Notes under the pieces: model-generated
The model's database searches: none
What the model was told of the DNA's origin: nothing
The model's input: the letters and a program-made list of their open reading frames with translations, nothing else
Position numbers and translations under genes: made by a program
Part shown: piece by piece, positions 2,843 through 54,901 of the stretch
Numbering within the stretch: the first letter of the stretch is position 1
How the letters are laid out: each line of letters begins with the position of its first letter
Source of the DNA: Candidatus Moraniibacteriota bacterium
GTDB lineage: Bacteria > Patescibacteriota > Minisyncoccia > Moranbacterales > UBA1568
NCBI GenBank assembly: GCA_963743885.1
Contig: CAVURJ010000002.1
Span: 433,706 to 497,705, forward strand
Length of the DNA: 64,000 nucleotides
Direction: 5' to 3'

Positions 2843-2854
2843 ATCTCGTGTCGT

Positions 2855-3499
2855 TTACATACCGAAACCCCAACCCGCCGGATTATCATCCGGCATGCTC
2901 GGTGGAAGATTCGGAATCTTCATCATGCGGAGCGCTTCCTGGGCGTTCGAGAGATTGACCTCTCCTTGGGAGAAATCCTCATCATCTATTCGCATCATGC
3001 CGATTCCGTACTGTACAATCATCGTTGGGTCGCTCATCTCCGGCTCCGTCGTCTCCTCACCGGTGGAGAATCGCGTCTCTTTCTTGAGATACTTAAACTC
3101 AGCCGTTCCGGAAGCAGCCGGAAGTGTACGAAGATTCTTGCCTTCTATCCAGGCGTAATACGGAGTAATACCCATGCGATCGGCCCGCACACCTTCCTGC
3201 GCGCTGACGACCAGGTAGAGGCTTCCTCCTACAGACACGCTGGCTCGGCCATCCGGCTCCCGGAAGAAATCCAAGAACTCGAGCCCGTGCAGATCTGTAC
3301 CGGTGCCACCGCACGCTACCGAAGCGTCGTTCTTGAGCTCCGGCCACTGTACACCCTCACGGACACATCTCTCATGCTCCGTTATGGCGCTATTCGCATG
3401 GCGGACCATAGTCGCCATCTCGTCGCTGCCGCTCTCTGGATACTCGGTATCCCCCGCGTACCCGACATGCATTTGCTTTATGATTTCCTGAAAATCCAT
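2855..3499 (-). CDS. Hypothetical phage structural protein, 214 aa
   Basis: Tightly packed in the late operon. No recognisable motifs. Confidence 0.35.
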   Translation of the reverse strand: MDFQEIIKQMHVGYAGDTEYPESGSDEMATMVRHANSAITEHERCVREGVQWPELKNDASVACGGTGTDLHGLEFLDFFREPDGRASVSVGGSLYLVVSAQEGVRADRMGITPYYAWIEGKNLRTLPAASGTAEFKYLKKETRFSTGEETTEPEMSDPTMIVQYGIGMMRIDDEDFSQGEVNLSNAQEALRMMKIPNLPPSMPDDNPAGWGFGM

Positions 3500-3516
3500 A
3501 TAGTTGCGTTATCTTG

Positions 3517-6500
3517 TTAGCGTCGGATTTTTCTGACCTTCTTAATCCTCGCCGGACGGAACGACATCATTCCGCGCCGCGAGATCGGTGCCGCCTTTGA
3601 ATCCATGAGTGCGAGCTCGAGGTCAATCATGTCCTTATCGATGAGTGGATAGCGAAACTTCTCCGGGAGCTTCTTCTCCGCTTTCGGCTTATTGAACGCC
3701 CCGCCGTATGATTCGAACTTCTCAGCTTCATTCGCGAGCGTATCTATCTGATTCTCATATTCCGAACGGTCCAAATCATCCACAGTAGGATCTGATACGA
3801 GCTTCTGAAGGAGCATATACTTCTTCTCAGCGTTATCGCGCCATTCCTGAAAGTTCTTTGCGCGCTTGTTCCCAGACATCCTGGCATTGAGGAGCTTCAC
3901 CGTGAACGAATCCTTCCGCTCCTGATACGCTGTACCGTCGTCTTTTTTCCTCAAGACATAGTCTCCGGCATCACGGAAGCTCTCATCTGAATCTTCGAAA
4001 TCCTCTCTCTCGATAGCCTGCCGCGCGAGTGTCTCGTTCTTGAAAGTCTTCGTATCAGACCTAAGTGCCGGAACGAAATACTTCCCGTCCTTGAGACGAT
4101 AGACACCTTCACCAACATCACCGGCCTCTCCCTGCTTGAGAGATCCACCAGCCTTGAGCCCCTCCTTCTCTTTGTTCGCTGAGCGGGAAGCCATAAGCGA
4201 TGAGTAGTATCCGCCTCGCTCGCCTTCCGGAAGCATTCGGAAAATCTCATCCTGTGTATCACCGAGAGGATTGCTGTCAGCTTCACGATAATCCTGCACC
4301 TCCTGAAGAGAGTTTTTACCGAAGAATAGTCCTTTTGCCATGTTGTACGGGCTCGATTCCACCGGCGTCATCACCTTGCCGGATGACGTCTCGGCAAATC
4401 CATCCATGAGCGTACCAACACCTTCGATGGAGTTCTTGATCTGCTTACCACCGAATGGTGGAGCGACCATGAAGAGTGGATCGGCGAAAGACTTGCTCAC
4501 AAGTAGACCACCACCGAATCTCGTCGGATCTTTATCTCCGAAAAGCTTCTCCCTTGTAGGAAGGTTGATTCCGGATCCCATGATGTCCTTCTTCCCATAT
4601 TCTGGATACATAGCCGCCACGGTCTGCCCAAGAGGGAGATTCGACAGTGCCTCTCCGGCGATACGTCCGCCGGCTCGCGTCAGTCCGGTACCGACAGTAT
4701 CTGACTCGCTATACGCTCCATACGCATCGATCATGGCCTGGATAGGATCAATGGCGACACCGCTTCCGCGTATCTCTTCAGCCGCCCGGTTCATCAGCCA
4801 CGTCGCCACAGAAAACTCCATGAGACGCTTCGCCAGAACAAGCTTACTCGGATCATTCTTCGCCCAGTCTCCGAATACTCTCCACTGGTTCGCTACCTCG
4901 AGCTGGAACGGTGCTATGAGCTGCGTAATCTTCGATTTTTGGAGGATAGGTACCTCTCCGATACCGCGGCCAGCCACCAGCTTCCGCGTCCAATCATCGG
5001 CATACTTCACCGGGTCGGACACGCCGAGTCCGAGCGCCTTCTGATACTGCGCGTTCCATGTGAATGTCGATCCTATCTTGTCCCCTATAGACGTAATCCA
5101 GACAGCGAAATCTTTCGTCCTATTGAGGATTCCAGGCTCAAACTTGTCATATCCGTTGAAATACCTCTCGTTCAGGAAAACGGAGCGCTTCGACGGAACA
5201 TCATCCTTCAGAATATCGACCATGCTATGGCCTATGGCGCGCGCCGAGTTCCTGACCCCCGCATTCGCGATTCCGTTCGGTATGCCGAAGAATTGTGCAA
5301 GCGCCGACGATGCGTTTCCAACGATTGTGTTCGCCTTCACTCGGCTATTGAGCCAATTTATCGCCTTGAAAGCCTGCCGTCCGAACATATTATCCTGGAA
5401 CGGCCTGTCGATTGGGTTCGTCTTACCGGCAAGGTCATTCGAGAAATTATCTAGGAACTTCAGGAAATTGTTGAGCTTGTTATCGGATGCCTCGGCAAGC
5501 GCCTTGGCATTGAACTCCGCCATTCCTTCTGGGGAGAGATTCTCGGTCATATACTCCTTCACCTTTCCGGCGTCCTTGATACCAGCGAGATCCTTCGCCA
5601 TGCGGACAGCGTCGCGGTCCTGGAGTCCTTTTCCGATGAGCAAGTTCTTGATTTCGTTCGGATCGGAAACACTGGCTATGCTTTCGAACGGATCCATCTT
5701 TTTCGAGAGCTCCTCCGCCAGTCCGACACTGGTATCGTCAAAGAACGCTCCGCGTGGAGTCTTTGACTTTATCTCTTGGTCTACTCCTCGGAAGCGCTGG
5801 ATGTGCGGATCAATATGCTTCGCGTACGCATTCGCCTTGATGTAATCGAGGAAGCCTCCAACGGCATCCATTTCGGTCTGCTTCCCAGTCCGCTTCTGAG
5901 CGAACGAGATCCACTTCGAGCTTGGCTTTGTGAACTGCGAAGACACGGCGAGAGCTGGATCGATATTCGCAGGCGTGTCGAAGATGTTCATGAGACCCTT
6001 GAATCCATCCGCCATCTCCTGGAAATGACGGTAGTAGTTCTCACGCTTCGGAATGACCTTAGTGCTCTCCGGGTGCAGCGGGTGCGTCGGGAAATAGAAC
6101 TCGCGGATGCGGTTCGTCTCATCGAGCATGTTGTCGTACATGTTCCGGAACCACTGGTCCGCCCGGACGACTTTGTCGGCCCCATCCTTTCCGAACTCTT
6201 TGACGAGGTCGTCATACGACATCCTCATCCCATCTGGCAATCCGGTATCTCCGTATTGCTGTACCGCCTGCGAAAGCCTGCTCCCCTTCTTGATACCGAG
6301 TCCGTCTACGATATGTTTCTGGAGTGCTTCGAGCTGCATACGCTGCTCATCGATAAACGCCCCCTTAGATGCGTCAAAAGGATCGAGAAGCTCGCTCTTC
6401 ACCTTCCCATAGGAATCGCCGAATACGTCCTCAAAGTTCCGATAGACGTCGCGCGTTCCAGCTTGGAGTGCTGATATATCCTTGAGCTTCACCGGGTCGA

Positions 6501-8112
6501 TTCCCTCCATGATCTTCGTATTGAGGTCTCGCTTCCTGGCGTAGTATTCCTTGAGCGTCTGATACGCCACGCGGTTCTTCAGGATGTTCTTCGTCATGTC
6601 AGAGCGGAAATCCATCATGGACTGGTGTCCCTTCGGATACCCAAGCCGCCCGAGCTCTGCGATGATCTTGCCTTCCTCCACGCCTATCTTCGCCGCTTCG
6701 GCCTTCTTGTATCCCATCGCGCGCAAAACATCCGGGACGTTCGCGATTTCCCGGAGATCCTGGATGATTTGCTTTCGCTTGTTGAAGGCGTCCTTCTGGT
6801 ACTTGTTATACCCTCCGGACGGAAACAGTGGCTCTGCCGGCTTCACAGGAGCCATAGGCTTCGCTGGATCAGGTATAGCATCCAATTCCTTCGATATGCG
6901 CTCGTCTATGCTCATAGGAGCGCTCTGAGGTGCTTTCTGGGGTGATGGCACCATCCTAGGCGCTACAGGAGCTCCTGGGGAAGTTTCCATGAGATTCCTG
7001 ACGGTTTCCTTAGCTGCGGCATTCTTCCTGGCGTTCAGAGCGTTCGCTTCGAGAGTGTTCTGGTTCCGTGGAGGACGACCGACGTTTTTGAGGCTCATAC
7101 CAGGCTGCGGCAGAGCATCCCGGACGGCCCGGCCGACATCAGAAAGCGTCGGGGAGGCTTTGCGCTCCACGACTTGCTCCGGGATGAGCTTCTCCTTGCG
7201 GATCCCATATACCGGAGACTGCGATACCTTGTCGAATCCAGCCTTGAAGGCCTTCCCAGAATACCGCTCCCCTTCTCCAAGCTTCGGTATCACCCCTGGC
7301 TTTCCATCAGCGTCGGAAGCGAATCTCACGACACCGCCATCACTCCAATGAGACTGTAGCCTTTCAGTTTTCAGAGGCTGTGTCCTGTTTCGTATCGAGT
7401 TCTTCGCCGCTTCCGGGACAGACTCCATGATCTCCTTCACCTTCTTCGCTGCTCCAGTAGCATCGTCAATACCTTCCTTCGCGAGAATGGTTGTCGGACG
7501 CATCAGGCCAGAAACGACACCGCCGAGAGCTGTACCCATTCCAGGTTTGAAAGTATCCGCGTTCGTCTTCTCTTCTTTCGACATCTTGTCGGCTACATCA
7601 TAGGCATACCCAAGTCCAGCGCCGCCAGCGACGCGTTTCACGACGCTCGGAGACATGAGCATCTTTGCTGTAGCCTTGATCTTGCCAAACGGAGCGATCT
7701 CTATGACAGACTTCGCTGTATCGGCGAGCATCTTCTTCGGAGTAAGATCCGTCACCGTCGGAAGAATATCGGTATTTCCAGCCTTGTACTGCTTCCTGAC
7801 ATTCTTGTCGACAGCGAATGCCGCACCCTCACCGATTACCTTCGGAGCCTTCGACAGAACGTTCTTCGTCCCGGAAAACATCTCTCCAACGTTATGGCTC
7901 GCCTCACGCACGAAATCCCGCGTCCGGAGTTCCGGAGCGGGCTCGAAATACCGTTCCACCGGCCGCGAACGCATCAGTTCGCTTGCGCTGTCCGCGGCCG
8001 ATTTCCCGATACGGGATATTTTCGATGTAGTGTTACCGAGAGCGTCAATGGCGCCATCTCCGATGTCGGAAATCTTCTTCTTCGCTTTTCGGTAAAAGTC
8101 AACGAGCGCCAT
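3517..8112 (-). CDS. Large virion protein, 1531 aa (tape-measure-like or internal/ejection protein)
   Basis: Single uninterrupted 4.6-kb ORF with Gly-rich and coiled-coil segments. Its position between head and tail genes is typical of tape-measure or internal virion proteins. Confidence 0.4.
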   Translation of the reverse strand: MALVDFYRKAKKKISDIGDGAIDALGNTTSKISRIGKSAADSASELMRSRPVERYFEPAPELRTRDFVREASHNVGEMFSGTKNVLSKAPKVIGEGAAFAVDKNVRKQYKAGNTDILPTVTDLTPKKMLADTAKSVIEIAPFGKIKATAKMLMSPSVVKRVAGGAGLGYAYDVADKMSKEEKTNADTFKPGMGTALGGVVSGLMRPTTILAKEGIDDATGAAKKVKEIMESVPEAAKNSIRNRTQPLKTERLQSHWSDGGVVRFASDADGKPGVIPKLGEGERYSGKAFKAGFDKVSQSPVYGIRKEKLIPEQVVERKASPTLSDVGRAVRDALPQPGMSLKNVGRPPRNQNTLEANALNARKNAAAKETVRNLMETSPGAPVAPRMVPSPQKAPQSAPMSIDERISKELDAIPDPAKPMAPVKPAEPLFPSGGYNKYQKDAFNKRKQIIQDLREIANVPDVLRAMGYKKAEAAKIGVEEGKIIAELGRLGYPKGHQSMMDFRSDMTKNILKNRVAYQTLKEYYARKRDLNTKIMEGIDPVKLKDISALQAGTRDVYRNFEDVFGDSYGKVKSELLDPFDASKGAFIDEQRMQLEALQKHIVDGLGIKKGSRLSQAVQQYGDTGLPDGMRMSYDDLVKEFGKDGADKVVRADQWFRNMYDNMLDETNRIREFYFPTHPLHPESTKVIPKRENYYRHFQEMADGFKGLMNIFDTPANIDPALAVSSQFTKPSSKWISFAQKRTGKQTEMDAVGGFLDYIKANAYAKHIDPHIQRFRGVDQEIKSKTPRGAFFDDTSVGLAEELSKKMDPFESIASVSDPNEIKNLLIGKGLQDRDAVRMAKDLAGIKDAGKVKEYMTENLSPEGMAEFNAKALAEASDNKLNNFLKFLDNFSNDLAGKTNPIDRPFQDNMFGRQAFKAINWLNSRVKANTIVGNASSALAQFFGIPNGIANAGVRNSARAIGHSMVDILKDDVPSKRSVFLNERYFNGYDKFEPGILNRTKDFAVWITSIGDKIGSTFTWNAQYQKALGLGVSDPVKYADDWTRKLVAGRGIGEVPILQKSKITQLIAPFQLEVANQWRVFGDWAKNDPSKLVLAKRLMEFSVATWLMNRAAEEIRGSGVAIDPIQAMIDAYGAYSESDTVGTGLTRAGGRIAGEALSNLPLGQTVAAMYPEYGKKDIMGSGINLPTREKLFGDKDPTRFGGGLLVSKSFADPLFMVAPPFGGKQIKNSIEGVGTLMDGFAETSSGKVMTPVESSPYNMAKGLFFGKNSLQEVQDYREADSNPLGDTQDEIFRMLPEGERGGYYSSLMASRSANKEKEGLKAGGSLKQGEAGDVGEGVYRLKDGKYFVPALRSDTKTFKNETLARQAIEREDFEDSDESFRDAGDYVLRKKDDGTAYQERKDSFTVKLLNARMSGNKRAKNFQEWRDNAEKKYMLLQKLVSDPTVDDLDRSEYENQIDTLANEAEKFESYGGAFNKPKAEKKLPEKFRYPLIDKDMIDLELALMDSKAAPISRRGMMSFRPARIKKVRKIRR

Positions 8113-8132
8113 ACCGCGTATCCGTTATTGGT

Positions 8133-9371
8133 TTATGCTACGGGTTCGGTGGCAGTCGTCTCCTCTGAATAGATCGGTTTTCCAAAGATGTCGTATCCAA
8201 CGATCTTCCGGTCTTTATTATTCTGATTATTCGGATCCGAGTCATCGAGCCAATCCTGCGCGCCATCAGAGAGCCCGTCGAGATTCCACTCTTCCGTGTA
8301 ATCAGGAACCTGGAGCTCCGCCGGTGCGTTCACGTCAATTTCCGCCGCCTGGATCTCATCGATGTTGATGCCCTGCTCCTGCGCCGCGATCGTGATGTTC
8401 TGCTTGAGTGTAGCCACCTTGCCGGAGATCTCAGCCACCTTGCCGAGGAACTTGTTGAGGTTCGCATCACTTTCTGCCTTAAGATCCTCCTGTTCCCATT
8501 TGTCAGCATTCTTCGAAAGCTTCGATATAGCTGATTCGTAGCGCTTGTATTCCTCCTTAGCAGCCTTCAGCTGCGTATCGTGCCATTCGTCGGCCTTCTG
8601 GATGCGGAGGGTGTACCGGTCCGTCTCGTCGCGCTCTGCCTGGTTCTGCTCGGCCGTCTGCGTGCCATATCCCTCAAGCTTCTCCTTGCGTTCTTGCCCG
8701 GCCTTCTTCCCGAGCACCTTAGCGAACCTTCTGGCCGCGGACGAGTTCGATGCCCCAAGGACACCGAGATTGATATTGGTACCAAAGATATTCTTCTTGA
8801 CGTCATCCGCTACCTTCTCGAGACTCTCTTTCTGGTTGCTCTGGATGAGCTGTTTGTTCCCAGCGATAGCCTCTTTCGTCTTCTCGAGGTAGCCCTTCGC
8901 CGCCTCTTTGTATTTGTCGCGAAGCGTCGGAATCTTCCCTATATCGGACTTCATAGAAGCTAGGTAGCCCTTCGCGTCCTTGAGCGTCGAGCTCGAGTCC
9001 TTCCAACCGGCGCCAATCATATCGAGCAGCTTCGAACTCTTATTCGACTCGTTCTGCCCGGCATACGAAGCTCCATACAGATCCTTGAGCGATGGGACAA
9101 CATTGCTGTTTCCATCACCACCTCCAGTAGATTGCATCTGACCACCACCGTCTTCGGAGGATCCGGCAGAAGAATACCCACTTTTTGATCCAAGGAAACC
9201 ATCAGGCGTAGCGAGGCCCTGCTTCGCTCGCTGGTATATGGCGGCGACATTTCCGCTCGTTATGGCACGACCAGCCTCCTGGAGACCAGGACGCCCGAAC
9301 AACCTTTCCGAAAGACCTTGCCCACTTTTACCGAGAATCGGCATATCATTGTCAGCCAATCGACCGCGCAC
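8133..9371 (-). CDS. Hypothetical phage structural protein, coiled-coil and Gly/Ser-rich, 412 aa
   Basis: Late-operon position and long coiled-coil K/E-rich segments. Confidence 0.35.
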   Translation of the reverse strand: MRGRLADNDMPILGKSGQGLSERLFGRPGLQEAGRAITSGNVAAIYQRAKQGLATPDGFLGSKSGYSSAGSSEDGGGQMQSTGGGDGNSNVVPSLKDLYGASYAGQNESNKSSKLLDMIGAGWKDSSSTLKDAKGYLASMKSDIGKIPTLRDKYKEAAKGYLEKTKEAIAGNKQLIQSNQKESLEKVADDVKKNIFGTNINLGVLGASNSSAARRFAKVLGKKAGQERKEKLEGYGTQTAEQNQAERDETDRYTLRIQKADEWHDTQLKAAKEEYKRYESAISKLSKNADKWEQEDLKAESDANLNKFLGKVAEISGKVATLKQNITIAAQEQGINIDEIQAAEIDVNAPAELQVPDYTEEWNLDGLSDGAQDWLDDSDPNNQNNKDRKIVGYDIFGKPIYSEETTATEPVA

Positions 9372-9386
9372 GGCTGTGCGCTAGTG

Positions 9387-9415
9387 TTGACAAAATTATT
9401 GATTTACACTATACT
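9387..9415 (+). promoter_or_regulatory. Sigma70-like promoter TTGACA-17-TATACT driving the plus-strand moron
   Basis: TTGACA at 9387-9392, a 17-nt spacer, and TATACT at 9410-9415. ATG of the downstream gene is at 9435. Confidence 0.45.
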
Positions 9416-9434
9416 TGCTCGTTATAATTGCCTT

Positions 9435-9812
9435 ATGGCTAGGAAACTTTTCATCGTCTCGTCGTTCGTGATCATATCGGCTTCGCTGGTTGTTTTTTCG
9501 ACTGCTTTCATCAACTGGACGAGCTATGGATTCAGCACCGGATTCGGTGATTCAATGATTCCAACTTTTCATCCTGGCACTCTGATATTTACTAACCCGC
9601 TCGAGACTCCAGAGATTGGTGATATTGTTTCATTCAAATGCTTGAGTAAGGAGAAATGCGACCGCTCTGGTGATATTGTTCATAGACTTGTTTCTGTCGA
9701 TCCTGACGGCTGCATGCATATTTACGGTGATAATGCTTCCATGAACTGGGACCCTAAGTGGTGCCTCTATCCAGACGAGATATCTATTTCAGGAGTGGTT
9801 CATAAGCTGTAA
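9435..9812 (+). CDS. Signal peptidase I-like (S26 family) protein, 125 aa
   Basis: N-terminal TM helix followed by the GDSMIPTF motif (S26 catalytic Ser box GDSMxPT). Plus-strand gene embedded in the minus-strand structural module. Start moved to the internal ATG at 9435 (MARKLF...). Confidence 0.55.
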   Translation: MARKLFIVSSFVIISASLVVFSTAFINWTSYGFSTGFGDSMIPTFHPGTLIFTNPLETPEIGDIVSFKCLSKEKCDRSGDIVHRLVSVDPDGCMHIYGDNASMNWDPKWCLYPDEISISGVVHKL

Positions 9813-9867
9813 TCATATGAAGACTCTGTTTGACTTGAAATGTTTTTAAATAATTAATTTTTTAAAT

Positions 9868-10065
9868 ATGTTGATACTTTTAAAAATATTCAGGATATTT
9901 TCGGTAATTTTCCTTGTATTACAGGTATCATCTTCATTGATACCGTATTTCATTACTAATCATTTCGGTGAGTTTCATGTTCCGACATTCTTTTTATGGC
10001 TTCTAATCTTTGCAATAACTCAAAACTATATTTCAAAGAAAATCGTTCCAGAAAAAGAATCCTGA
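9868..10065 (+). CDS. Small two-TM membrane protein, 65 aa (holin-like size, function unknown)
   Basis: AT-rich segment with two hydrophobic helices and a charged C-terminus. Co-oriented with the signal-peptidase-like gene. Confidence 0.3.
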   Translation: MLILLKIFRIFSVIFLVLQVSSSLIPYFITNHFGEFHVPTFFLWLLIFAITQNYISKKIVPEKES

Positions 10066-10078
10066 TTTTTTTCAAACA

Positions 10079-10191
10079 ACAAAAAAGCGGCCTACCAGGT
10101 CGCCGCGCATTGGCGCTTGCCTGATAGGTCGCTTGGTCCGCAATGTATGTGCTGCGGATATCGATCTACACCAGAATGATACCACCTTTCC
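10079..10191 (-). repeat. Conserved late-operon intercistronic element, copy 2
   Basis: Identical to 744-855. Hairpin at 10087-10106 with A8 at 10079-10086 (U-run on the minus strand), directly after the stop of 10221-11687. The plus-strand moron begins just downstream. Confidence 0.7.
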
Positions 10192-10220
10192 GAAAAGAGC
10201 GCAAGATGGTTTTTTGATGT

Positions 10221-11687
10221 CTACAACCACTCCACTGGGAATCGGAAGAACTCCTGTCCGCCCGGGCGCATATGGTATATCCACTTCACTCCGTCAGCTG
10301 TCACGAGGAACTTTGAGCGCTTCCCGTCGTATGCTCCTGGGTTCGCATACGGCATCGTCGGTCCTGGTTCGAGTATGCCGGTGACGAGGTTCAGTATCAT
10401 CGTACGCTTCTGGCTCTCCTTTGCGATGAAGATTTTACGCTCCCCATGCATGAAGGTGGAGGATGCGCCTGTTCCTATCGTCTCGCTCCCCCAGTAGGTC
10501 GTTATGGTCTCAAACGTCGCGAGGCCGAAGTTGTACCGATACAGTGTATTCCCGCCACCTCCGCGCAGGCAATAGAGCCCAAATGGGTCTGAATTGTGCG
10601 GATGGAACGTCATGCACCCGCCTGCTGGTGCTGCTGGGAAAGCCCCAAGAGATGCGCTCCATGCCGCACCGGTAGTCTGAGCAACATCAAGCCGGTAGAG
10701 TGTATTCGACGTGCTACCAGGGTTGTAATAGACGAAATCAGAAGACGGTACGATCTGGAAGACAGACGTGTCATCTGGAGGTGTCGTCCAGTTTCCGGTC
10801 CTGGCGTTTCCAGTGACTGCGGCCGCAAGCGTCAAGGTATCCGTCGTGTTCGACGCAATTCTCCTCCGCTGGCCGATGCCTGTTCCGGACAAGATCACAA
10901 CATCAGAAAAGGCATACTTGTTGGCCGTCCATCCAGCGCCAGTCATCACGAGTGTCGTTGACGATCCGGATGTCGCTGTCCCCTTTGGAGTGATGACGAT
11001 GAACGTATCCCCTGCGGTAGGTGCAGAGCCGAAAGCCGCCACGGTAAGCGTCTTCCCATTAGGTACAGCTGTGATTATCCTCCTCTGCCCGGAGAGCGCC
11101 CCGGATGTAAACTCGATATAGTTTCCGATAAGGCCAGAGAAGAATGTTCCGGTCGTTTCTTTCCCTGAAACATTGTCGATGATCGATGTAGCGGTACACC
11201 CGGAGGCTACTGCTCCATCATCGAGGTTTCCGCTCAGTGTCACGTCATCAGGGAGCACGATATTCGCTCCGTAGTCAGCCACGGCAGGAAGGACGACAGT
11301 GATAGTCGTAAGTGCTCTGGCGGCGCAGGAAACGTTGGCTATAGTGACGGTAGTAGTATTGAGGTTGAATACCTGCCACGACGTCAGACCGGCCCCATGG
11401 ATGATATAGAGGACATTCCTGACGGGGTCATATTCGATATCAAGACCCCTATTCCCGTTAGTAATCGTCGCGAGAGGCGTCCAACCAAGCGTCCACGTGT
11501 CAAAAATATACAAGACGGTCGTTGAGGCGCTCGTGGCTGTCGTACCGTACTGGATAGCCCAATACTGGTATCTTACGCCATCGTATGTGCATGATGTTCC
11601 ATGATACGATGGCCCGGGCATGAAGAAGTCCAGCCACTGCTTGACCACGAAATCGACACCCTTCTTGAAATAATAGTTCACCGACAT
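10221..11687 (-). CDS. Putative receptor-binding/tail protein (Thr/Gly-rich, beta-propeller-like), 488 aa
   Basis: T/G/S-rich repetitive beta-strand composition typical of phage fibre or receptor-binding proteins, in the late-operon context. Confidence 0.4.
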   Translation of the reverse strand: MSVNYYFKKGVDFVVKQWLDFFMPGPSYHGTSCTYDGVRYQYWAIQYGTTATSASTTVLYIFDTWTLGWTPLATITNGNRGLDIEYDPVRNVLYIIHGAGLTSWQVFNLNTTTVTIANVSCAARALTTITVVLPAVADYGANIVLPDDVTLSGNLDDGAVASGCTATSIIDNVSGKETTGTFFSGLIGNYIEFTSGALSGQRRIITAVPNGKTLTVAAFGSAPTAGDTFIVITPKGTATSGSSTTLVMTGAGWTANKYAFSDVVILSGTGIGQRRRIASNTTDTLTLAAAVTGNARTGNWTTPPDDTSVFQIVPSSDFVYYNPGSTSNTLYRLDVAQTTGAAWSASLGAFPAAPAGGCMTFHPHNSDPFGLYCLRGGGGNTLYRYNFGLATFETITTYWGSETIGTGASSTFMHGERKIFIAKESQKRTMILNLVTGILEPGPTMPYANPGAYDGKRSKFLVTADGVKWIYHMRPGGQEFFRFPVEWL

Positions 11688-11697
11688 ATGATTCTTG

Positions 11698-13053
11698 TTA
11701 TGTGATTACCCACTTCTGGCGACGAAGTTCCATGACGATTTCCGAGAACTCCCGCTCCATATCCCTCGTATCGGAGCCTGCTGGAGATCCGGTGCTGTAA
11801 GGGACCGGCTGTGAGTTGTAGCTTCCCCACTGCGGGACCATTGTAAGCGTTCCTGAGACGCGGAGCTGGTCTGAAGTATCCTTCGCATACGGAAGCGCAA
11901 TCTGGATCATTCCGTGCTTCGTAGCGCGCTCTATACCAGCCGTCAGATCAGCCATCTGCTGAACAAGTGCCTGAAGCAGTACCTGGTTCGATACGATACT
12001 GTCTTGCTTCTCCGAGGTAGCCAATCCGGCCGGGAGAGACTCCACGGAAACCGGCTGCGTATCTGCTGGAGTGGTCAACGCCGCGGTATTGGCCTCCAAC
12101 CCGTCTACCGCTGACGAAATAGCATCTAGAACGGTTCTGATACCTTTCAGGCGATCCTGCAGCGTATTGGACGTAGGACTGGCATCAACTTCACCTATAC
12201 GGTCCGACACCTCTTGCGTCTTTGCTTCCAATGTATCGGTATTGAGATTGACGCTGTCTGCAGTAATCTCGAGCTGGTCGGTATTAGCAGCCACCTCTGA
12301 TATGGCGGAAAGGATCGACTGGAGCGTCGCCTCCGTGGCGTCGCCTCCTGACTTTCCGAAGAATCCGGCGCCACCTACTCTGTCGACCGCTACCTTCACG
12401 CGTCCCTGCTCATCGAGCGGGAGATTCAGAGAACCTGATCCGGAAGACTTTCCAATTTCCCTGATAGCATCAATCACCTTCGAAAGGTCAAACTCCGGAA
12501 ACCATTTCGGCTTATTCGGAATATCTACCGTCATCTTGTCCGGAATCTCCACGTGCACGGTGCTTTCCGGGATGATAATCTCCGGCAGCTTTATCTCGGG
12601 AACCTTGATCTCTGGTACCTGGATCTTCGGAAGTTTGATTTCCGGGATGGATACATTCACCTCGATAGGCTCTTCCCGCTTACTTGCTACCTCTTTCCTC
12701 AGGACTCCTATGGCATCGATAAACGCTGTTTTGAGGCGGTCTATGGCCGATATAGTCCCAGAGCCCACCTGTATGCCAACACGGGCCTCCTGGCGCGTTT
12801 TCTTGAGTTCCTCGGTGAGCTTTTCTGACGCTTCCCGCAAATCTTTCCTGGCCCATCTTGATGTGGATACGATAGCCTGGATGATATCCTGGTCATCAAA
12901 ATCAGCCTTCTCCTTCACTATCTTGGACAACGCCGCTATCGCCTTCGGTGCGTCATCCTTTGATCGCAATATTTGAAAAACAAATTGAGCGATAAGATCA
13001 GTATCGCCCTTACTCTGCTGTTTTGCTCTGAGATATTCGTCTCTGTTTTCCAT
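11698..13053 (-). CDS. Phage structural protein with (I/V)PEIK(L/V)P repeats and coiled-coil segments, ~452 aa
   Basis: ORF 11698-13233 trimmed to the internal Met (MENRDEY...) so it does not overlap the upstream gene. Contains IPEIKLPKIQVPEIKVPEIKLPEIIIPE repeats. Confidence 0.4.
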   Translation of the reverse strand: MENRDEYLRAKQQSKGDTDLIAQFVFQILRSKDDAPKAIAALSKIVKEKADFDDQDIIQAIVSTSRWARKDLREASEKLTEELKKTRQEARVGIQVGSGTISAIDRLKTAFIDAIGVLRKEVASKREEPIEVNVSIPEIKLPKIQVPEIKVPEIKLPEIIIPESTVHVEIPDKMTVDIPNKPKWFPEFDLSKVIDAIREIGKSSGSGSLNLPLDEQGRVKVAVDRVGGAGFFGKSGGDATEATLQSILSAISEVAANTDQLEITADSVNLNTDTLEAKTQEVSDRIGEVDASPTSNTLQDRLKGIRTVLDAISSAVDGLEANTAALTTPADTQPVSVESLPAGLATSEKQDSIVSNQVLLQALVQQMADLTAGIERATKHGMIQIALPYAKDTSDQLRVSGTLTMVPQWGSYNSQPVPYSTGSPAGSDTRDMEREFSEIVMELRRQKWVIT

Positions 13054-13132
13054 ATAGTGTTCGCCTTCCCACTCCTGCCGCGATCGACCCACTCGCTTAC
13101 GCGAGCGCGGCATGAGCGGAGAGGCGAATGCC

Positions 13133-13477
13133 TCATTCCGCGGCCTCTTCAGCCAGTTTCGCCTCGATAAGAGCGGCAATAGCCGGATTCGTAGAACCTT
13201 CCGGAACGACGATTCCGAGCTTCTCGCACTCATTGAGAAGGTCAGCCTTCTTCATCTTGCCATAGTCGACAGGCTTCTGATCATCGGCCTTCTCCTCTTC
13301 GAGGATGGAGGCAAAAGCGACAGCCTGCGCTTCTGACAAGTACGAACGGCGCGCCCGGATGAAGGCGATGTCCTCCTTCTTGAGGGAGCTTACACGTACC
13401 TTCACGAGCTTTTCGAAGCGTGCCTGCGAATGCGGGTCCATTCCTTCGCTCGGTGCTTCTTCCATTTTTCGTGCCAT
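13133..13477 (-). CDS. Small acidic protein with HeH/Rho_N-like motif, 114 aa
   Basis: C-terminal ...KMKKADLLNECEKLGIVVPEGSTNPAIAALIEA... resembles HeH/SAP/Rho-N helices common in phage head-associated proteins. Confidence 0.35.
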   Translation of the reverse strand: MARKMEEAPSEGMDPHSQARFEKLVKVRVSSLKKEDIAFIRARRSYLSEAQAVAFASILEEEKADDQKPVDYGKMKKADLLNECEKLGIVVPEGSTNPAIAALIEAKLAEEAAE

Positions 13478-13568
13478 ATGCGCGTTGTTGCGTTAATTAG
13501 AGACTCGCCGACCTTACGAGCCTTATACTACTCCGGAGCATTGTCCGGAGTAGTAAAGACCAACAAGC

Positions 13569-14729
13569 CTAGGCAGACTTGTTGAACTTGGCAAAGAGGC
13601 AGACGCCAGCCTTGCGGCGCTCGTCCGCAACCTTCTCGCCATGGACGAAGAGTCCCTTGACGACGTCGCTGAACGACTCTCTGGAGTTCTCAGACTTGAT
13701 CACGTGCGGATCTTCGATGAAATCGAAGGCGCCAGTGATAAAGGCGCGATGACCACCAACACAGTAGAAACCGTCGGTGTTATCGCCTTCGAACCACTCG
13801 TCAGGAAGCATGTAGACAGTGAAACCGCTGATCTTCCCGATCTCTCCCTTCTCAGTCACCTCGTCGTACACCTTACCGATGCCAGTGCCGAGAGCAGCAG
13901 CCGCGCTGAGGAGCACAGGCTGTGCCGCGAGCGCCGGGAGCGCGATCCAGCGCTTCCCATCGTTCGGGATGCTGAGCTTCGTGAGCATCGCCGAGAGGGT
14001 ATCAAGGTAGAACTTGATAGTGAGCTCGGTAACGGCAAGCACGGTAGCAGCCTGGATCTCGTACGACGCGCCGGCCGAGATGGCACCGCCGGTGTATGCG
14101 GAATCCTTGTCGTCGCTGTCGTCCTCGATAGTGATGGACGTAGCTGACGAATAGGCCTTCACGCGAGACCAGGCGGAATGGCCATCAGCCTTGAACGGCT
14201 TACCGACCATATCTGAGGTGAACGCAGAGCTTGAGCCAGTGACAACACCGGTCGTAGCAGCGACGGCTACGGTACCAGCGACGTGCGACGTACCGAGCCA
14301 GTTGCCAGACGCGGCGCAGTCGTACATCGTCAGGAGCGACTTGTCCATCTCCTCATAGAGCTGGTTCGCTGCCTGGTTGATGAGCTCGCTATCCGGGTTC
14401 TCGACCGCCGACGCGAATGCATCGATGGACGGGATCTCATCGGAGAGCTCAAGCGGCGTATCGACGATAAGCCGCGAGATCACCTCCTCGACAGTCGAGT
14501 AAGTGATGGCACCCTTGCCGGTAGACGACTTCCAGCCGCCGCCCTTGAGGGTGGTGACCACGAACTCCTTGACGGTCTTCGTGATCTTCTTCTTCGCCTT
14601 CGGATCAGACACATTGGCGGCCTCGAAGTCCGAGTTCACCACGTCCACATACATGGACCGGCGAAAGAACTTCTGCAGGGCCCGCGTTTTGTACTTGATC
14701 GAAGTCGAGGTTGTTCCAAAATCGGACAT
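13569..14729 (-). CDS. Putative major capsid protein (HK97-like by context), 386 aa
   Basis: Follows the scaffold-like gene in the terminase-portal-scaffold-capsid order. Size and composition fit a major capsid protein. Confidence 0.5.
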   Translation of the reverse strand: MSDFGTTSTSIKYKTRALQKFFRRSMYVDVVNSDFEAANVSDPKAKKKITKTVKEFVVTTLKGGGWKSSTGKGAITYSTVEEVISRLIVDTPLELSDEIPSIDAFASAVENPDSELINQAANQLYEEMDKSLLTMYDCAASGNWLGTSHVAGTVAVAATTGVVTGSSSAFTSDMVGKPFKADGHSAWSRVKAYSSATSITIEDDSDDKDSAYTGGAISAGASYEIQAATVLAVTELTIKFYLDTLSAMLTKLSIPNDGKRWIALPALAAQPVLLSAAAALGTGIGKVYDEVTEKGEIGKISGFTVYMLPDEWFEGDNTDGFYCVGGHRAFITGAFDFIEDPHVIKSENSRESFSDVVKGLFVHGEKVADERRKAGVCLFAKFNKSA

Positions 14730-14751
14730 ATGACTTCACAATTACGCGGAA

Positions 14752-15741
14752 TTATTCCGGTATTTGCCCTTTACGAACCATTTCTCGGTACTTATCAGGG
14801 TCTTCTTTTGAAATCCGCTCGATTTCATCCCAACTGAGAGTCTTCGGAGCAGATGACTTGTCCGAGCCGGAGATGGCCCCGGATAACGCCGCTCTCCTTT
14901 CGTCCTCGACCTTCTTGGCTTCAATTTCGGCGACCTTCGCCTCGCTCTCTGCCTTGACGCCGGTTACGAGCTCGTATGCTTCTGATAGCTTCTTGCCGCT
15001 CGACACAAGTGCCGCACATGCCTCAGCTACCTTCTTGTCGTACTCAGGCTTGTCTTCCTGGAGATCAGGGTGGGACTCGTATGTATCACGAATGTCCTTG
15101 TTGAAAGCCTCGATACGATCCTCCTCTTGCTTCTGATGAAGCTTATCTTGGGCGCGAGATTCGACGATAACGTCGAGTTCCTCGTCTGGGATGGTGAAGG
15201 GTGTTTTGTCCCCTGGATTCTTGAGCCTACTCTTGAGAGCAAGGAGCTCCTTGAGCTTGGCTTCGCGTTGTTCGTATGGATACTTCGCGATTTCCTGGGC
15301 AAACTCATCGATATTGATGTCGGAAGCAGACTCGTCACCTTCGAGCACTTTGATGTCCCGGTAGAGCTGCGCAATGCGCTTATCTGACCGATACACCTTC
15401 GGACCTTGTACTGGCACCGTTTCCGGCTCCTTACCCTGGTCCGGCTTCGTCTCTCCGGCTTCTGGCTTCTTTCCGTCTTTCCCTTCCCCTTCGTCGCCTT
15501 CCTTCCGCTCCGGCTCTTGCGCGGCCGGCTTGGGTTCCTCTCCAGATTTCTCAGGTTCGGAAGCGGGTTTCTTGTCTTCTGCGGGCTTCGATGCAGGTTG
15601 CGCTCCCTGCTCGAAGTTTTCCTGTCCGACAAGATCCTTGATGCGCGGGTCGACTTCCTCTGACGCGGGAATGACGGGTTCGACCTTTGCTTCTGCGGGC
15701 GGAGTGGCGCCTCCGTCTGGCGTAAGATCCTTGGGATCCAT
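14752..15741 (-). CDS. Putative scaffolding protein (acidic, K/E-rich coiled-coil), 329 aa
   Basis: Highly charged low-complexity coiled-coil protein between the portal-like and capsid-like genes. Confidence 0.45.
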   Translation of the reverse strand: MDPKDLTPDGGATPPAEAKVEPVIPASEEVDPRIKDLVGQENFEQGAQPASKPAEDKKPASEPEKSGEEPKPAAQEPERKEGDEGEGKDGKKPEAGETKPDQGKEPETVPVQGPKVYRSDKRIAQLYRDIKVLEGDESASDINIDEFAQEIAKYPYEQREAKLKELLALKSRLKNPGDKTPFTIPDEELDVIVESRAQDKLHQKQEEDRIEAFNKDIRDTYESHPDLQEDKPEYDKKVAEACAALVSSGKKLSEAYELVTGVKAESEAKVAEIEAKKVEDERRAALSGAISGSDKSSAPKTLSWDEIERISKEDPDKYREMVRKGQIPE

Positions 15742-15837
15742 AAGTTTCGGCCTAATGGTTACGAGTGGGCCGACCTCGTATGCATACGGATCATCTCCTT
15801 GCGGAGAAGTACCCGAGGATGGGGAGTCGATACCCCA

Positions 15838-16236
15838 TTACTCGGAAACTCCTTCTGTTTCTGGTTGCGATGTTTCCTTCTCTTTTTCCTCTTCTGATTT
15901 CTGGTACACTTTCGCGGATGAGGTGCTCTGCGCCCAGGCGATGAGCTTCCTCATGTTCTTGATGCTTTCACTTCGAGCGATATCGATGGCTCCTATGAGT
16001 TCGAGCGAAGTATTTGAGCCAAGCTCTTCCGTATTGACCGGCTCGAGGAGTTCCACGATCATCTCCTCGGCATGCTCTACGATGAGCTGCCAACCTTGCG
16101 TCTGGACGGTCTCTGCCACCATGCATTCTTCTCGATTCTTCCGATCCATGTAGCCCTTCTCGTTGGATACGCGCTCCTTGATAGCCTTATCGCGGCGAGT
16201 CGAGACTTCCCTTATGATTTCTTTTACGTCGCTCAT
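15838..16236 (-). CDS. Hypothetical head-morphogenesis protein, 132 aa
   Basis: Translationally coupled (4-nt overlap) with the portal-like gene. Confidence 0.3.
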   Translation of the reverse strand: MSDVKEIIREVSTRRDKAIKERVSNEKGYMDRKNREECMVAETVQTQGWQLIVEHAEEMIVELLEPVNTEELGSNTSLELIGAIDIARSESIKNMRKLIAWAQSTSSAKVYQKSEEEKEKETSQPETEGVSE

Positions 16237-17996: not shown

Positions 17997-18003
17997 AGAA
18001 AAA

Positions 18004-18059
18004 CAAAAAAAGCGGCCTACCAGGTCGCCGCGCATTGGCGCTTGCCTGATAGGTCGCTT
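18004..18059 (-). repeat. Conserved intercistronic element, copy 3 (hairpin + U-run conserved, body diverged)
   Basis: Same AAAAAAAGCGGCCTACCAGGTCGCCGCGCATTGGCGCTTGCCTGATAGGTCGCTT core as copies 1 and 2. U-run + 8 nt + ATG of the portal gene. Confidence 0.6.
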
Positions 18060-18123
18060 CGCTCTCGGTGCGTTTTTCTATGCCGCGTGAGAGTATCGAT
18101 CTACGCTGTCATGATAGCATGTA

Positions 18124-18492
18124 TCATGATTTTGCGCAAGGATTATTTCCAGCAATACTTCCTAATGGAATCTCTTTCCCATTGATGCGTACATGGAGGT
18201 TGATACCGGTAATCATTTTACCCTTTCGGTATATAGCCACCTTCCCAGGCTCATTCTGAAAATATGCGATGCTGAAACCACAGGATTTGATGATGAGGCG
18301 CTTCACGAGTTCGCTCGACGTCCGGAAATACAGGCTCCGGCGACGAGGAAACATCATGAGCGCTTTCATGATCATGGCATCAATTTCCTCGGCGTACCTC
18401 TTGGCGAGCTTCATGTACACCAGAGGACTTTCGACTGGGTCATTGACGATGACTTCATCAAGCGACTTGGCTAGATATCGTTCTTTTTCCAT
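18124..18492 (-). CDS. Hypothetical protein, 122 aa
   Basis: ORF between terminase and portal genes. No recognisable motifs. Confidence 0.3.
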   Translation of the reverse strand: MEKERYLAKSLDEVIVNDPVESPLVYMKLAKRYAEEIDAMIMKALMMFPRRRSLYFRTSSELVKRLIIKSCGFSIAYFQNEPGKVAIYRKGKMITGINLHVRINGKEIPLGSIAGNNPCAKS

Positions 18493-18513
18493 AGACTTAT
18501 AATTAATGGCTTA

Positions 18514-50987: not shown

Positions 50988-51112
50988 GGTACGTAATCAA
51001 TTACGTAATTATCTTTCTTTCCTCTCTAAAAAAGTGTTTACCACCGTCGTCCATGGACGACGTGGCTTGCCTGCCCGCCCCTGGAGAGACCACTTTTCTT
51101 CTCCTAAAGATT
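50988..51112. repeat. R2 repeat copy 1 (TACGTAATcAATTACGTAA box + CCACCGTCGTCCATGGACGACGTGG terminator palindrome)
   Basis: Near-identical to 54768-54895. On the minus strand the palindrome is followed by T6, so it terminates gene 51104-52600. Confidence 0.65.
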
Positions 51113-52600: not shown

Positions 52601-52647
52601 CCATCCAAAAACCTAGTCAGTTCTCAAATTTGACACAAAATCTAGTG

Positions 52648-52815: not shown

Positions 52816-52872
52816 AGAAAAAAGGATGGCCTTTACGGTCATCCTTTGCAAGTCATTGCCTGATCTTTGCGT

Positions 52873-54061: not shown

Positions 54062-54072
54062 GGTAGACCTCC

Positions 54073-54895: not shown

Positions 54896-54901
54896 CTTAT
54901 A

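Follow-up and report, generated by a model that had tools for sequence, protein, structure and literature searches.

Type I signal peptidases are normally housekeeping enzymes of the host, and phages would be expected to borrow them instead of carrying their own. In bacteria the type is represented by SpsB of S. aureus and SipS of B. subtilis (PF10502; MEROPS S26A, without domain II), proteins of about 180-190 residues with an N-terminal anchor and a β-barrel of the SF clan. The ER/archaeal type (SEC11A/C, yeast Sec11, and B. subtilis SipW; TIGR02228) has a histidine in a VHR box and no S.DSR motif. SipW is a dedicated peptidase, encoded beside its substrates in the tapA-sipW-tasA operon. The small enzymes SodX (the NiSOD maturation protease, TIGR02754) and TraF (of conjugative plasmids) likewise exemplify S26 enzymes that serve a single substrate encoded alongside them. 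Small proteins of 122-138 residues with a predicted S26 fold are annotated in two phages, Bacillus phage BCD7 and Myoviridae sp. ctZgq1. A literature search found no papers on these two proteins, and nothing relevant on phage-encoded signal peptidases or on signal peptidases in CPR phages.

The locus described here lies in a prophage within a window of 64,000 nucleotides from a Candidatus Moraniibacteriota bacterium. We consider it rather probable, judging from sequence comparisons, that it encodes an active type I signal peptidase, which heads a phage envelope cassette and is a fixed core gene of a new podovirus-like clade. The window peptidase resembles SpsB and SipS in its anchor and barrel, and shares with them the SM.PT, GD[IV][IV].F, [K/H]R, and GDN boxes; the lysine-type members of its own mini-family share the full box E as well, GDN..S.DSR..G. 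It differs from SpsB and SipS in being only about 125 residues long; in having histidine in place of the general-base lysine; in the loss of S.DSR; in four family-specific cysteines; and in being encoded as a core phage gene. With the ER/archaeal type it has in common the histidine in a VHR box and the missing S.DSR, although its TIGR02228 score is far below the cut-off. The operon logic of SipW, a peptidase with adjacent exported cargo, is the same as that of the cassette in the window.

The SodX profile gives a weak match (TIGR02754, 22.6 bits, far below the 63.25 cut-off); no NiSOD or conjugative pilin gene is nearby, and the partners of peptidases of the window type are variable. The phage-annotated S26 proteins match in predicted structure (ctZgq1 "Peptidase S26 domain-containing protein", E = 2e-5, TM 0.59; BCD7 putative signal peptidase I, E = 3.6e-3), but sequence identity is only 19-20%, and nothing suggests core-gene status for them. 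Finally, phage morons (lambda lom and bor, HK97) have a promoter and a terminator of their own and a deviant base composition, and the cassette is like them in its candidate promoter, lower GC content, site between structural genes, and variable downstream content; patchy presence, however, is a property of the downstream genes and not of the peptidase.

A miniature S26 peptidase with a predicted histidine base

The peptidase gene (ORF1) occupies positions 9435-9812 of the plus strand. Its reading frame is open over 9318-9812, and the sensible start is the ATG at 9435, supported by the N-termini of homologues and by the position of the promoter; the product is then 125 residues long (MARKLFIV...). 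The sequence supports an S26-type (signal peptidase I-like) protein behind a predicted membrane anchor. A hydrophobic helix covers residues 4-27 or so (Kyte-Doolittle peak 2.28; residues 2-28 in the AF2 model). The conserved boxes are then met in order: GDSMIPTF, containing the presumed nucleophile Ser40 (codon 9552-9554); box C, GDIVSF, at residues 62-67; VHRL, containing His83 and Arg84 (histidine codon 9681-9683); and GDN, at residues 98-100 (9726-9734). The S.DSR portion of box E is missing. Four conserved cysteines, C69, C75, C93, and C110, are specific to the family.

Ser40 and His83 align with the serine of SGSMEP and the histidine of IVHRV in human SEC11A, and also with the serine and lysine of bacterial signal peptidases (YVKRI of 4nv4). 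The alignment with SEC11A takes in the serine and histidine boxes for the single peptidase sequence, and continues to GDN with the family profile. The initial annotation had pointed to the S26 catalytic box behind a transmembrane anchor, and had proposed a search for a lysine or histidine partner and for a profile match to S26 or S24. Box, anchor, and partner are all present. The single sequence scores just below the Pfam S26 cut-off (PF10502, 21.4 bits, E = 2.7e-4, against 22.9), and the profile match is clear at the level of the family; S26 is matched at E ≤ 0.01 by 37 of 47 sampled family members, with a best E of 4.7e-16. The Pfam S24 match of the window peptidase is weaker, at 17.1 bits. 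Its NCBIfam scores are 26.5 bits for sigpep_I_arch (TIGR02228, cut-off 51.85) and 20.8 bits for sigpep_I_bact (TIGR02227, cut-off 47).

A phmmer search with the peptidase returned 157 cluster representatives (50% identity) at E ≤ 1e-3, nearly all of 110-180 residues, and several family members are named "signal peptidase I" in their source records. Ser40, Met41, Pro43, Arg84, and G98-D99-N100 are invariant in the 92 members that were aligned, and D63 nearly so. Position 83 is histidine in 39 members and lysine in 53, and nothing else. Box E in its S26-specific form, GDN..S.DSR..G, is kept by 49 of the 53 lysine-type relatives, and graded box-E intermediates occur within the family. The top PDB profile matches are signal peptidases and SEC11. 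By these comparisons the family clearly belongs to S26.

The nearest sequence relatives are bacterial mini-peptidases of the lysine type (E down to about 1e-11); Sec11 and SipW are more distant (E about 1e-2 to 1e-6). Because the nearest relatives are lysine-type and box E is graded within the family, the histidine is most simply explained as an independent lysine-to-histidine switch, and not by common descent with Sec11. On this sequence evidence the window peptidase has the predicted base of an ER-type enzyme, yet is no member of that type by descent: its TIGR02228 score is low and its closest relatives are lysine-type and bacterial.

The AF2 model (pLDDT 94.5) has the LexA/UmuD/SpsB fold. 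The top Foldseek matches are UmuD', LexA, SpsB, the lambda cI C-terminal domain, and SipA, all with probability 1.0 and with query-normalised TM scores of 0.46-0.58, and the catalytic β-barrel of the SF clan is recognisable. The single N-terminal helix is probably oriented N-in, which would place the core of roughly 95 residues outside the cytoplasmic membrane. This topology is predicted from charge distribution and from analogy with S26 enzymes; the N-terminal MARK and the four cysteines fit an outside location. In ten family members C69 and C75 are kept and the other two cysteines are missing, a hint that the four may form two disulfide pairs. For catalysis the peptidase would rely on Ser40 for the nucleophile and on His83 for the general base; D106, an aspartate beside a conserved tryptophan, may be a third catalytic residue.

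Promoters, ORF2, and the borders of the cassette

A 500-kb contig that also carries dnaK, hrcA, and prfB contains the phage block in integrated form. About 30 neighbouring phage proteins were compared with PHROGs, Pfam, and NCBIfam. The matches are weak ones to portal, terminase, and replication proteins; the terminase is only 25% identical to those of known podoviruses; and none of the proteins compared was matched to a lysin, holin, integrase, or repressor. In L004 (see below) a homologue of the peptidase stands next to hrcA; a host copy in the corresponding place was looked for in the window and is not there. The cassette had been described as holding the only plus-strand genes of the block. 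This is true of the structural part, 1-20.2 kb, as judged from reading frames, codon-position GC, and hydropathy. A plus-strand ORF at 436-741, beside the first copy of the repeated element described below, was considered as a second such gene and rejected, since it shadows a minus-strand tail-fibre-like ORF starting at 734.

To the left of the cassette, and divergent from it, is a minus-strand virion-module gene of 403 codons at 8133-9344, whose true start is the ATG at 9344 (MPILGK), as in the gene call of an identical Logan contig. It has no Pfam, PHROG, or INPHARED match. To the right, a minus-strand gene of 488 codons (10221-11687) converges on the cassette; the stretch to which it belongs, from the cassette to the head genes, is variable, and related loci hold different genes at this place.

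The divergent intergenic region contains two overlapping promoter candidates on the plus strand. The first (P1, 9387-9415) is the TTGACA-17-TATACT promoter reported at the outset, with TTGACA at 9387-9392 and TATACT at 9410-9415, matching 11 of 12 consensus positions. The second (P2, 9399-9428) consists of TTGATT, an 18-nt spacer, and TATAAT, with 10 of 12 positions matching. Promoter-like sites in 9000-10600 are no more numerous than expected by chance (3, against 2.0 ± 1.5 in shuffled sequences). A TTGAC[AT] box lies just past the start of the divergent gene in seven of the nine related loci whose upstream regions were read. Since the -10 box of P2 ends at 9428, 6 nt before the ATG, this promoter implies a leaderless or near-leaderless mRNA. 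The same layout, a -10 box, 6 nt, and an ATG, is found in L002, L005, and L013, with 8 nt in L001. The missing Shine-Dalgarno box was rejected as evidence of leaderless mRNA, such boxes being absent from every gene in the window. Seven nucleotides upstream of the -35 box of P1, at 9365-9380, the sequence contains a perfect palindrome, GCGCAC-GGCT-GTGCGC, which may be an operator or a hairpin; it is missing from the related loci, whose intergenic regions are shorter.

ORF2 (9868-10065, plus strand) is the only cargo gene in the window. It is the tiny two-helix protein of the initial annotation: 65 residues with two hydrophobic, membrane-helix segments and a charged C-terminus (SKKIVPEKES). The very AT-rich 3' half noted there is equally evident, with 26.3% GC over 9813-10078 (26% in the DNA of ORF2) against 44.2% in the peptidase gene and 52-54% in the flanking phage DNA. 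In every locus examined the cassette is lower in GC than the rest of the phage. ORF2 has no family match in Pfam, NCBIfam, PHROGs, or PADLOC. It is nevertheless a real gene, because a 56-residue ORF directly after the peptidase in two other phages (L005 and L006) is 48% identical to it over 52 residues (E = 6e-8), with the common motif VPT..FWLL[IV]FAI[TS]QNYISK. A minus-strand ORF of 39 codons antisense to it (9956-10075) was rejected as a gene; the conserved homologue exists for ORF2 only. The first helix of ORF2 has only a weak cleavage-like site (VSSS↓L). As a holin candidate, ORF2 has the size, the two helices, and the charged tail, but no adjacent endolysin and no match to a holin family.

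Immediately 3' of ORF2 lies the second copy (10076-10205, minus strand) of an element of about 125 nt that is repeated in the minus-strand operon. Within it the hairpin GCGGCGACCTGGTAGGCCGC precedes a T-run. The copy marks the 3' limit of the plus-strand cassette, and transcription converges there. The three copies are at 740-869, 10076-10205, and 18001-18059 (RNA fold z = -3.2), and an Rfam search of 1-31000, the element included, found no family. This hairpin, with its T-run on the opposite strand only, is the sole 3' structure of the cassette. The cassette had been placed downstream of the second copy, which is correct only if one reads along the minus-strand structural operon; in the cassette's own direction the copy follows ORF2.

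A constant peptidase and variable cargo in related phages

The peptidase occupies the same divergent position, between the virion-module gene of about 400 codons and the head genes, in all 14 related phage contigs that were found. That gene is its left-hand neighbour in every related phage (30-35% identity across six phages). When IMG/VR loci were retrieved with the neighbouring gene in place of the peptidase, six of six carried the peptidase, and five of these loci were new. The histidine-type enzyme fills the slot in seven contigs and the lysine-type enzyme in seven, so that the types interchange. All recovered members of this phage clade, which has not been described before, thus have the peptidase in one fixed place. 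Such constancy is unusual for phages and suggests a role in the basic infection cycle.

These comparisons alter the view of the locus as a moron inserted into this particular phage. The peptidase is no sporadic insert, being present at the same divergent position throughout the 14 contigs; the term fits the genes after it, which are patchily distributed among close relatives as those of morons are. Membrane or secreted proteins are encoded directly downstream of the peptidase in 12 of the 13 contigs with readable DNA. One recurrent cargo family comprises cysteine-rich proteins with canonical cleavage sites (ALA↓G, SDA↓G, SLA↓T); it has 719 homologues, the named ones mostly from Patescibacteria genomes. 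A cargo protein with the motif CCSxHGG is absent from all six frames of the window. In L011 the peptidase is followed by a PIF1-type helicase, so a strict pairing of peptidase and substrate is not universal.

Homologues of the peptidase also stand in chromosomal, housekeeping neighbourhoods: in L004 (Candidatus Moraniibacteriota) and in the metagenomic contigs L010 and L012. A blastn search of 8000-12000 against INPHARED gave no match, and tblastn recovered no recognisable homologue of the peptidase among the phages deposited there, the histidine type giving weak matches to S24 repressors and the lysine type nothing; the enzyme has, in consequence, no characterised viral precedent. A pattern scan of IMG/VR with alignment A2 confirmed no relative.

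Together, these observations are consistent with the following model. The peptidase would belong to the core genes of podovirus-like (pro)phages that form a new clade and probably infect Patescibacteria; the host of this prophage is likely such an ultra-small bacterium. It would head a separately promoted envelope cassette, in which the small membrane or exported genes that follow (here ORF2) are interchangeable. The phage would in effect supply a copy of the host's own kind of minimal signal peptidase, and its exported proteins, possibly together with host pre-proteins, would then be cut and set free at the membrane without recourse to the host enzyme. The cargo proteins may thus be substrates of the peptidase. 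Virion proteins were an earlier suggestion. A crude hydropathy scan of the structural proteins at 872-20226 found no N-terminal signal-like segment, which leaves virion protein maturation without support.

Alternative roles and implications

What the phage gains from the cassette, and when it is expressed, could be seen differently. An unlikely alternative, though one with several points in its favour, is that this is a lysis cassette, in which two-helix proteins are holins, coiled-coil and lipoprotein cargos are spanin-like, and the peptidase is the constant component. A lytic factor, secreted or tethered to the membrane, could be matured or set free by the enzyme, or the enzyme could itself attack an envelope protein. 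ORF2 is holin-sized, with two membrane helices and a charged C-terminus, and small two-helix proteins recur in related loci (two in L009, of 50 and 59 residues; one of 81 residues in L002 and L014). N-terminally anchored coiled-coil proteins are encoded in L005 and L017, and a lipoprotein in L015. No other candidate for holin or endolysin was found among the roughly 30 phage proteins scanned, and a gene shared by the whole clade would suit an indispensable step, egress for example. However, no peptidoglycan-hydrolase domain was found in the block, inside or outside the cassette; the cassettes of L001, L007, L013, and L016 have no holin-like gene; and the cassette runs against the late operon, from its own candidate promoter of σ70 type. 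Chromosomal homologues with the same motifs in housekeeping contexts argue for ordinary signal-peptide cleavage. Moreover, the prevailing view is that Patescibacteria have no outer membrane, which would leave spanins without a target.

A module for lysogenic conversion or superinfection exclusion is also doubtful, a shade more so than lysis. The surface of the lysogen would be altered by the peptidase together with its exported partners, and the change would block related phages or benefit the host; a receptor could be clipped or masked, or host-like surface proteins could be added. Integration of the block beside host genes fits this, as do the consensus promoter, the lower GC content, and the direction, which is opposite to that of the late genes. 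The cargo is hypervariable, with genes shuffled from one phage to another, as an arms race predicts, and the named homologues of the cysteine-rich family, being mostly from Patescibacteria, suggest host-like surface proteins. Yet genes of this kind tend to occur sporadically, in contrast to the peptidase, which is found throughout the clade; the peptidase, ORF2, and the cargo proteins match no PADLOC defence model; and the portion of the prophage that the window covers showed neither an integrase nor a repressor.

It is very improbable that the protein is a catalytically dead S26 homologue serving as a chaperone or assembly factor, after SipA/LepA of the Streptococcus pilus islands. The S. pyogenes SipA structure (4n31, TM 0.58) is among the fold matches, as is a BFVD entry, "SipA" of an uncultured siphovirus. 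SipA is without catalytic residues; in the family described here Ser40, [HK]83, Arg84, and GDN are invariant in all 92 aligned members. Least credible is a membrane-tethered, self-cleaving S24 regulator of the LexA/cI/UmuD kind, to which the best Foldseek matches (UmuD', LexA, the lambda cI C-terminal domain), the weak Pfam S24 match, and the repressor families matched by family members in PHROGs might point: those autopeptidases are soluble, with an N-terminal DNA-binding or cleavable domain and an internal site of self-cleavage, whereas the window peptidase begins with a membrane helix, matches no DNA-binding domain or HTH, scores higher with S26 than with S24, has signal peptidases and SEC11 as top PDB profile matches, and has lysine-type relatives that keep the S26-specific box E.

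An active signal peptidase at the head of an envelope cassette is the reading that we prefer. A stronger version of it has a small chance of being right: that the peptidase is essential and clade-defining in a new lineage of Patescibacteria phages, a constant part of the machinery for egress or envelope change, with proteins of the ORF2 type as the gate. If so, maturation or release of the proteins by which a virus opens or remodels the host envelope would hinge on a copy of a general-secretion enzyme that the virus itself encodes. The family would also document a switch from lysine to histidine as the base in a bacterial and phage lineage, independent of Sec11 and SipW.

If the peptidase is only a passenger derived from the host, then nothing but the location of the gene is out of the ordinary. 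If it is active, it would be among the smallest natural signal-peptidase scaffolds, of use for structural or inhibitor work, and its family would provide a natural series of lysine-type, intermediate, and histidine-type enzymes for studying the exchange between Ser-Lys and Ser-His mechanisms. The clade seems to infect Patescibacteria (CPR), a group about whose phages and envelopes very little has been learned; an active enzyme would provide a handle on how phages deal with the envelope of these ultra-small cells.

The cassette and its start region

A short plus-strand cassette lies between two minus-strand genes of the phage structural block that encode proteins of 403 (8133-9344) and 488 residues (10221-11687). 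It consists of the peptidase gene (9435-9812) and ORF2 (9868-10065), whose 65 residues include two hydrophobic segments and end in a charged tail. GC content is about 53% in the flanking phage DNA, 44% in the peptidase gene, and 26% in 9813-10078, confirming the AT-rich 3' half noted in the initial annotation. The promoter proposed there is also present: TTGACA at 9387, a 17-nt spacer, and TATACT ending at 9415 match 11 of 12 consensus positions. A second plus-strand candidate, TTGATT-18-TATAAT, is separated from the ATG at 9435 by 6 nt. Promoter-like sites in the region number three against 2.0 +/- 1.5 expected, a count not above chance. A TTGAC[AT] box lies just past the divergent gene start in seven of nine related loci read, and in four of those the -10 box lies 6-8 nt before the peptidase ATG. 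This suggests that the peptidase mRNA leader is very short or absent.

A Shine-Dalgarno-like sequence is missing from the 30 nt upstream of all 24 window genes checked, phage and host (including dnaK, grpE, hrcA, and prfB), so that its absence at the peptidase gene is uninformative; the organism seems not to rely on Shine-Dalgarno-led initiation. The divergent intergenic region also contains a perfect palindrome, GCGCAC-GGCT-GTGCGC (9365-9380), 7 nt 5' of the -35 box. It is absent from the shorter intergenic regions of related phages, and may be an operator.

Although the peptidase reading frame is open from 9318, translation most sensibly begins at the ATG at 9435 and gives 125 residues: this codon lies directly 3' of the promoter-like boxes, and the resulting amino terminus (MARK plus a 22-residue hydrophobic helix) aligns with those of all homologues. 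The exact 125-residue sequence is recorded solely for a 9.3-kb Logan contig and not for the 500-kb NCBI/ENA contig that carries the neighbouring genes, so public annotation may omit the gene or use another start. The 403-residue neighbour is recorded on the NCBI/ENA contig as 334 residues.

A predicted minimal S26 signal peptidase

Taken singly, the peptidase scores just below the curated threshold for Pfam S26 (21.4 bits; cut-off, 22.9), with 17.1 bits for Pfam S24 and 26.5 for sigpep_I_arch (cut-off, 51.85). In an exhaustive phmmer search against 1.84 billion representatives, 157 relatives passed E <= 1e-3 and 35 of them E <= 1e-10; almost all measure 110-180 residues. Pfam S26 matches 37 of 47 aligned family members (best E = 4.7e-16), several members bear the name 'signal peptidase I' at source, and the assignment to S26 in the initial annotation is thus correct at the family level.

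Seven residues never vary among 92 aligned members: S40, M41, P43, R84, and G98-D99-N100. Position 83 is always His (39 members) or Lys (53). Ser40 and His83 align with the SGSMEP serine and the IVHRV histidine of human SEC11A, supplying the catalytic partner; the family profile also aligns to the Ser and Lys boxes of the bacterial signal peptidases 4me8 and 4nv4. The S26-specific GDN..S.DSR..G box occurs in 49 of the 53 Lys-type relatives. An AlphaFold model built from the 47-sequence alignment (pLDDT 94.5) joins one long amino-terminal helix to a small beta-barrel, which Foldseek assigns to the LexA/UmuD/signal-peptidase clan, with UmuD', LexA, SpsB, the lambda cI carboxyl-terminal domain, and SipA each matched at probability 1.0. 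The protein has a predicted membrane anchor where the self-cleaving S24 repressors have a DNA-binding domain; this anchor and the GDN..S.DSR..G box of the relatives set S26 apart from those repressors.

The window peptidase is of the His type, and catalysis by His is predicted as in the endoplasmic reticulum and archaeal enzymes (Sec11, SipW). Its sequence, however, is far closer to Lys-type mini-peptidases than to Sec11, and box E is graded among His-type members, from GDNQ..A.DTRDYGCLMP to GDNP.YDWS...C.YP. These features are read as a switch to His that probably arose inside the mini-peptidase family. The aligned family proteins (P0001-P0192; loci L004, L009, and L010 included) form one tight family with either general base, and each type is found on chromosomes as well as at the common phage position. 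Four cysteines are family-specific: C69, C75, C93, and C110. Ten members retain C69 and C75 and lack the other two, a pattern compatible with two disulfide pairs in what would be an extracytoplasmic domain. The product of 9435-9812 is thus predicted to be a minimal, four-Cys, His-type S26 signal peptidase.

A constant slot with exchangeable neighbours

Every related phage contig found shares a common layout: minus-strand genes for proteins of ~655, ~205-214 (SU10-adaptor-like in contig L007), 1,460-1,930, and ~400 residues; the plus-strand peptidase with small variable genes; and minus-strand head genes. The first related loci were found through the peptidase itself. In a less biased test, IMG/VR was searched with an alignment of the ~400-residue neighbour; all six loci recovered, five of them new, encode the peptidase on the opposite strand, directly upstream of that neighbour. 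Altogether, 14 phage contigs carry it in this slot, seven His-type and seven Lys-type. Because either type can fill the slot, the pattern argues that activity, rather than a particular gene lineage, is what is kept. The label 'moron' from the initial annotation therefore suits the variable cargo slot but not the peptidase, which is no one-off insert: all 14 contigs have it.

No homologue of the peptidase or of the ~400-residue neighbour was detectable among deposited phages in INPHARED, and the terminase is only 25% identical to those of known podoviruses. A few small phage S26 proteins in BFVD, such as that of Bacillus phage BCD7, are uncharacterised and only 19-20% identical to the window peptidase; a literature search found nothing on them. 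An undescribed phage clade, with CPR bacteria as likely hosts, has the peptidase as a hallmark gene.

Searches of Pfam, NCBIfam, PHROGs, and PADLOC gave no match to ORF2. By our own rough estimate, a 65-codon frame in 26% GC DNA is unlikely to arise by chance (a few percent). More decisively, L005 and L006 contain an uncalled 56-residue homologue directly 3' of the peptidase gene (48% identity over 52 residues; E = 6e-8 in a search limited to the collected loci), sharing the motif VPT..FWLL[IV]FAI[TS]QNYISK. ORF2 is thus a real gene.

Cargo genes, those 3' of the peptidase gene, belong to a few recurring families shuffled independently of peptidase type. Small two-helix proteins include the ORF2 family (window, L005/6), an 81-residue family (L002/3, L014), and a pair of 50 and 59 residues (L009). 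Cys-rich secreted proteins (CCS.HGG.S.C...G.YSPSC; cleavage sites ALA|G, SDA|G, and SLA|T) occur in L001, L002/3, L013/18, L014, and L016, and are absent from the window. This family has 719 relatives, a few with DUF3761; those named are mostly from Patescibacteria (Moraniibacteriota, Parcubacteria, Woesebacteria). The remainder are amino-terminally anchored coiled-coil proteins (L005/6, L017), other anchored proteins (L007, L019), a lipoprotein with a three-helix protein (L015), and, as sole exception, a PIF1-like helicase (L011). Such recurrence makes the cassette best described as a constant predicted signal peptidase plus a swappable set of envelope proteins. The L015 cassette (4061-5481, minus strand) encodes the three-helix membrane protein and the lipoprotein (LSGC lipobox, DRDSDGSACE motif), and its next two small ORFs look HicA/HicB-like by eye.

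The cassette also abuts a repeated intercistronic element, reported initially and present as three minus-strand copies of ~125 nt in the late operon (740-869, 10076-10205, and 18001-18059). Its minus-strand sequence has promoter-like boxes (TTGCGC-17-TATCAT), a structured part (z = -3.2), and, at the end, a T-run preceded by a GC hairpin. At copies 1 and 3, 8-9 nt separate the end of this T-run from the ATG of the minus-strand gene that follows. Copy 2 has no minus-strand gene behind it; instead, the cassette stops 10 nt before the element. The cassette thus takes up the space of one gene behind copy 2; transcription would converge on the element hairpin. No Rfam family was found for the element, which possibly serves as a terminator/promoter unit or encodes a small RNA. 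Near copy 1, a tail-fibre-like minus-strand ORF has its start at 734 and continues past the window's left end. For the portal gene (16233-17996, minus strand), 17996 is a likelier start than 18035, since element copy 3 overlaps the longer version.

Host setting and likely role

The left 28 kb encodes a terminase, an SU10-like portal (weak matches), and a protein resembling replication initiators, along with many products that match nothing. To the right lie ordinary genes of a cell (GGDEF, hemerythrin, RND efflux, prfB, dnaK, grpE, hrcA). The capsid-position gene and host genes are on record from one 500,284-nt NCBI/ENA contig, so the phage block is integrated. The prophage extends beyond the window's left edge, and neither integrase nor repressor was found inside the window. 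Patescibacteria prophages are rarely described. DnaK and a short HrcA are 71% and 52% identical to their counterparts in a Candidatus Moraniibacteriota MAG, where dnaK, grpE, and hrcA follow in the same order. The phage host is related to Candidatus Moraniibacteriota and likely a member of the Patescibacteria.

The chromosome of this MAG further carries a His-type mini-peptidase gene (39% identity), which stands by itself with hrcA on one side and yidD/corA on the other. Two further chromosomal examples, both Lys-type and on metagenomic contigs, lie between uppP and ygjP/aspS and beside rpmI-rplT, respectively. Judged by these neighbourhoods, the mini-peptidase is a cellular gene type in the Moraniibacteriota genome and the two contigs, and the phage copies are host-like.

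Two side features deserve record. Low-GC islands in the host region 51000-58000 (34-37%, against ~53%), which include a gene for a 498-residue Nudix-domain protein, may be further horizontally acquired DNA. Gene 24056-25489 (minus strand) encodes 477 residues with an amino-terminal hydrophobic helix; at 24443-25363, ~34 tandem copies of a 27-nt unit specify the nine-residue repeat [RW]ESSQV[GR][VE]M, and weak, possibly repeat-driven PHROG 'RIIB' matches span this region.

The window protein is most likely an active, membrane-anchored Ser/His signal peptidase. The analysis shows its family, motifs, fold, conserved position, and host-like origin, and that its neighbours are exported; we infer its activity, topology, substrate identity, and timing. 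It would act at the outer face of the membrane on exported proteins, above all those that the phage cassette itself encodes. Three features speak for a role in egress: ORF2 is holin-like in shape, no other lysis candidate was found, and the peptidase has core-gene status. Surface remodelling or exclusion during lysogeny is suggested instead by an orientation opposite to the flanking genes, a promoter of its own, low GC, and cargo turnover that resembles an arms race. Virion protein maturation, raised initially, is unlikely, since a hydropathy scan of the structural proteins revealed no signal-like amino terminus. Conservation of the catalytic residues argues against a dead, chaperone-like S26 homologue.

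S26 signal peptidases as a kind are known; the minimal four-Cys His-type version as a phage-clade hallmark gene is new. This version is moderately interesting now, and would be considerably more so if the enzyme proved essential for phage exit or envelope handling.
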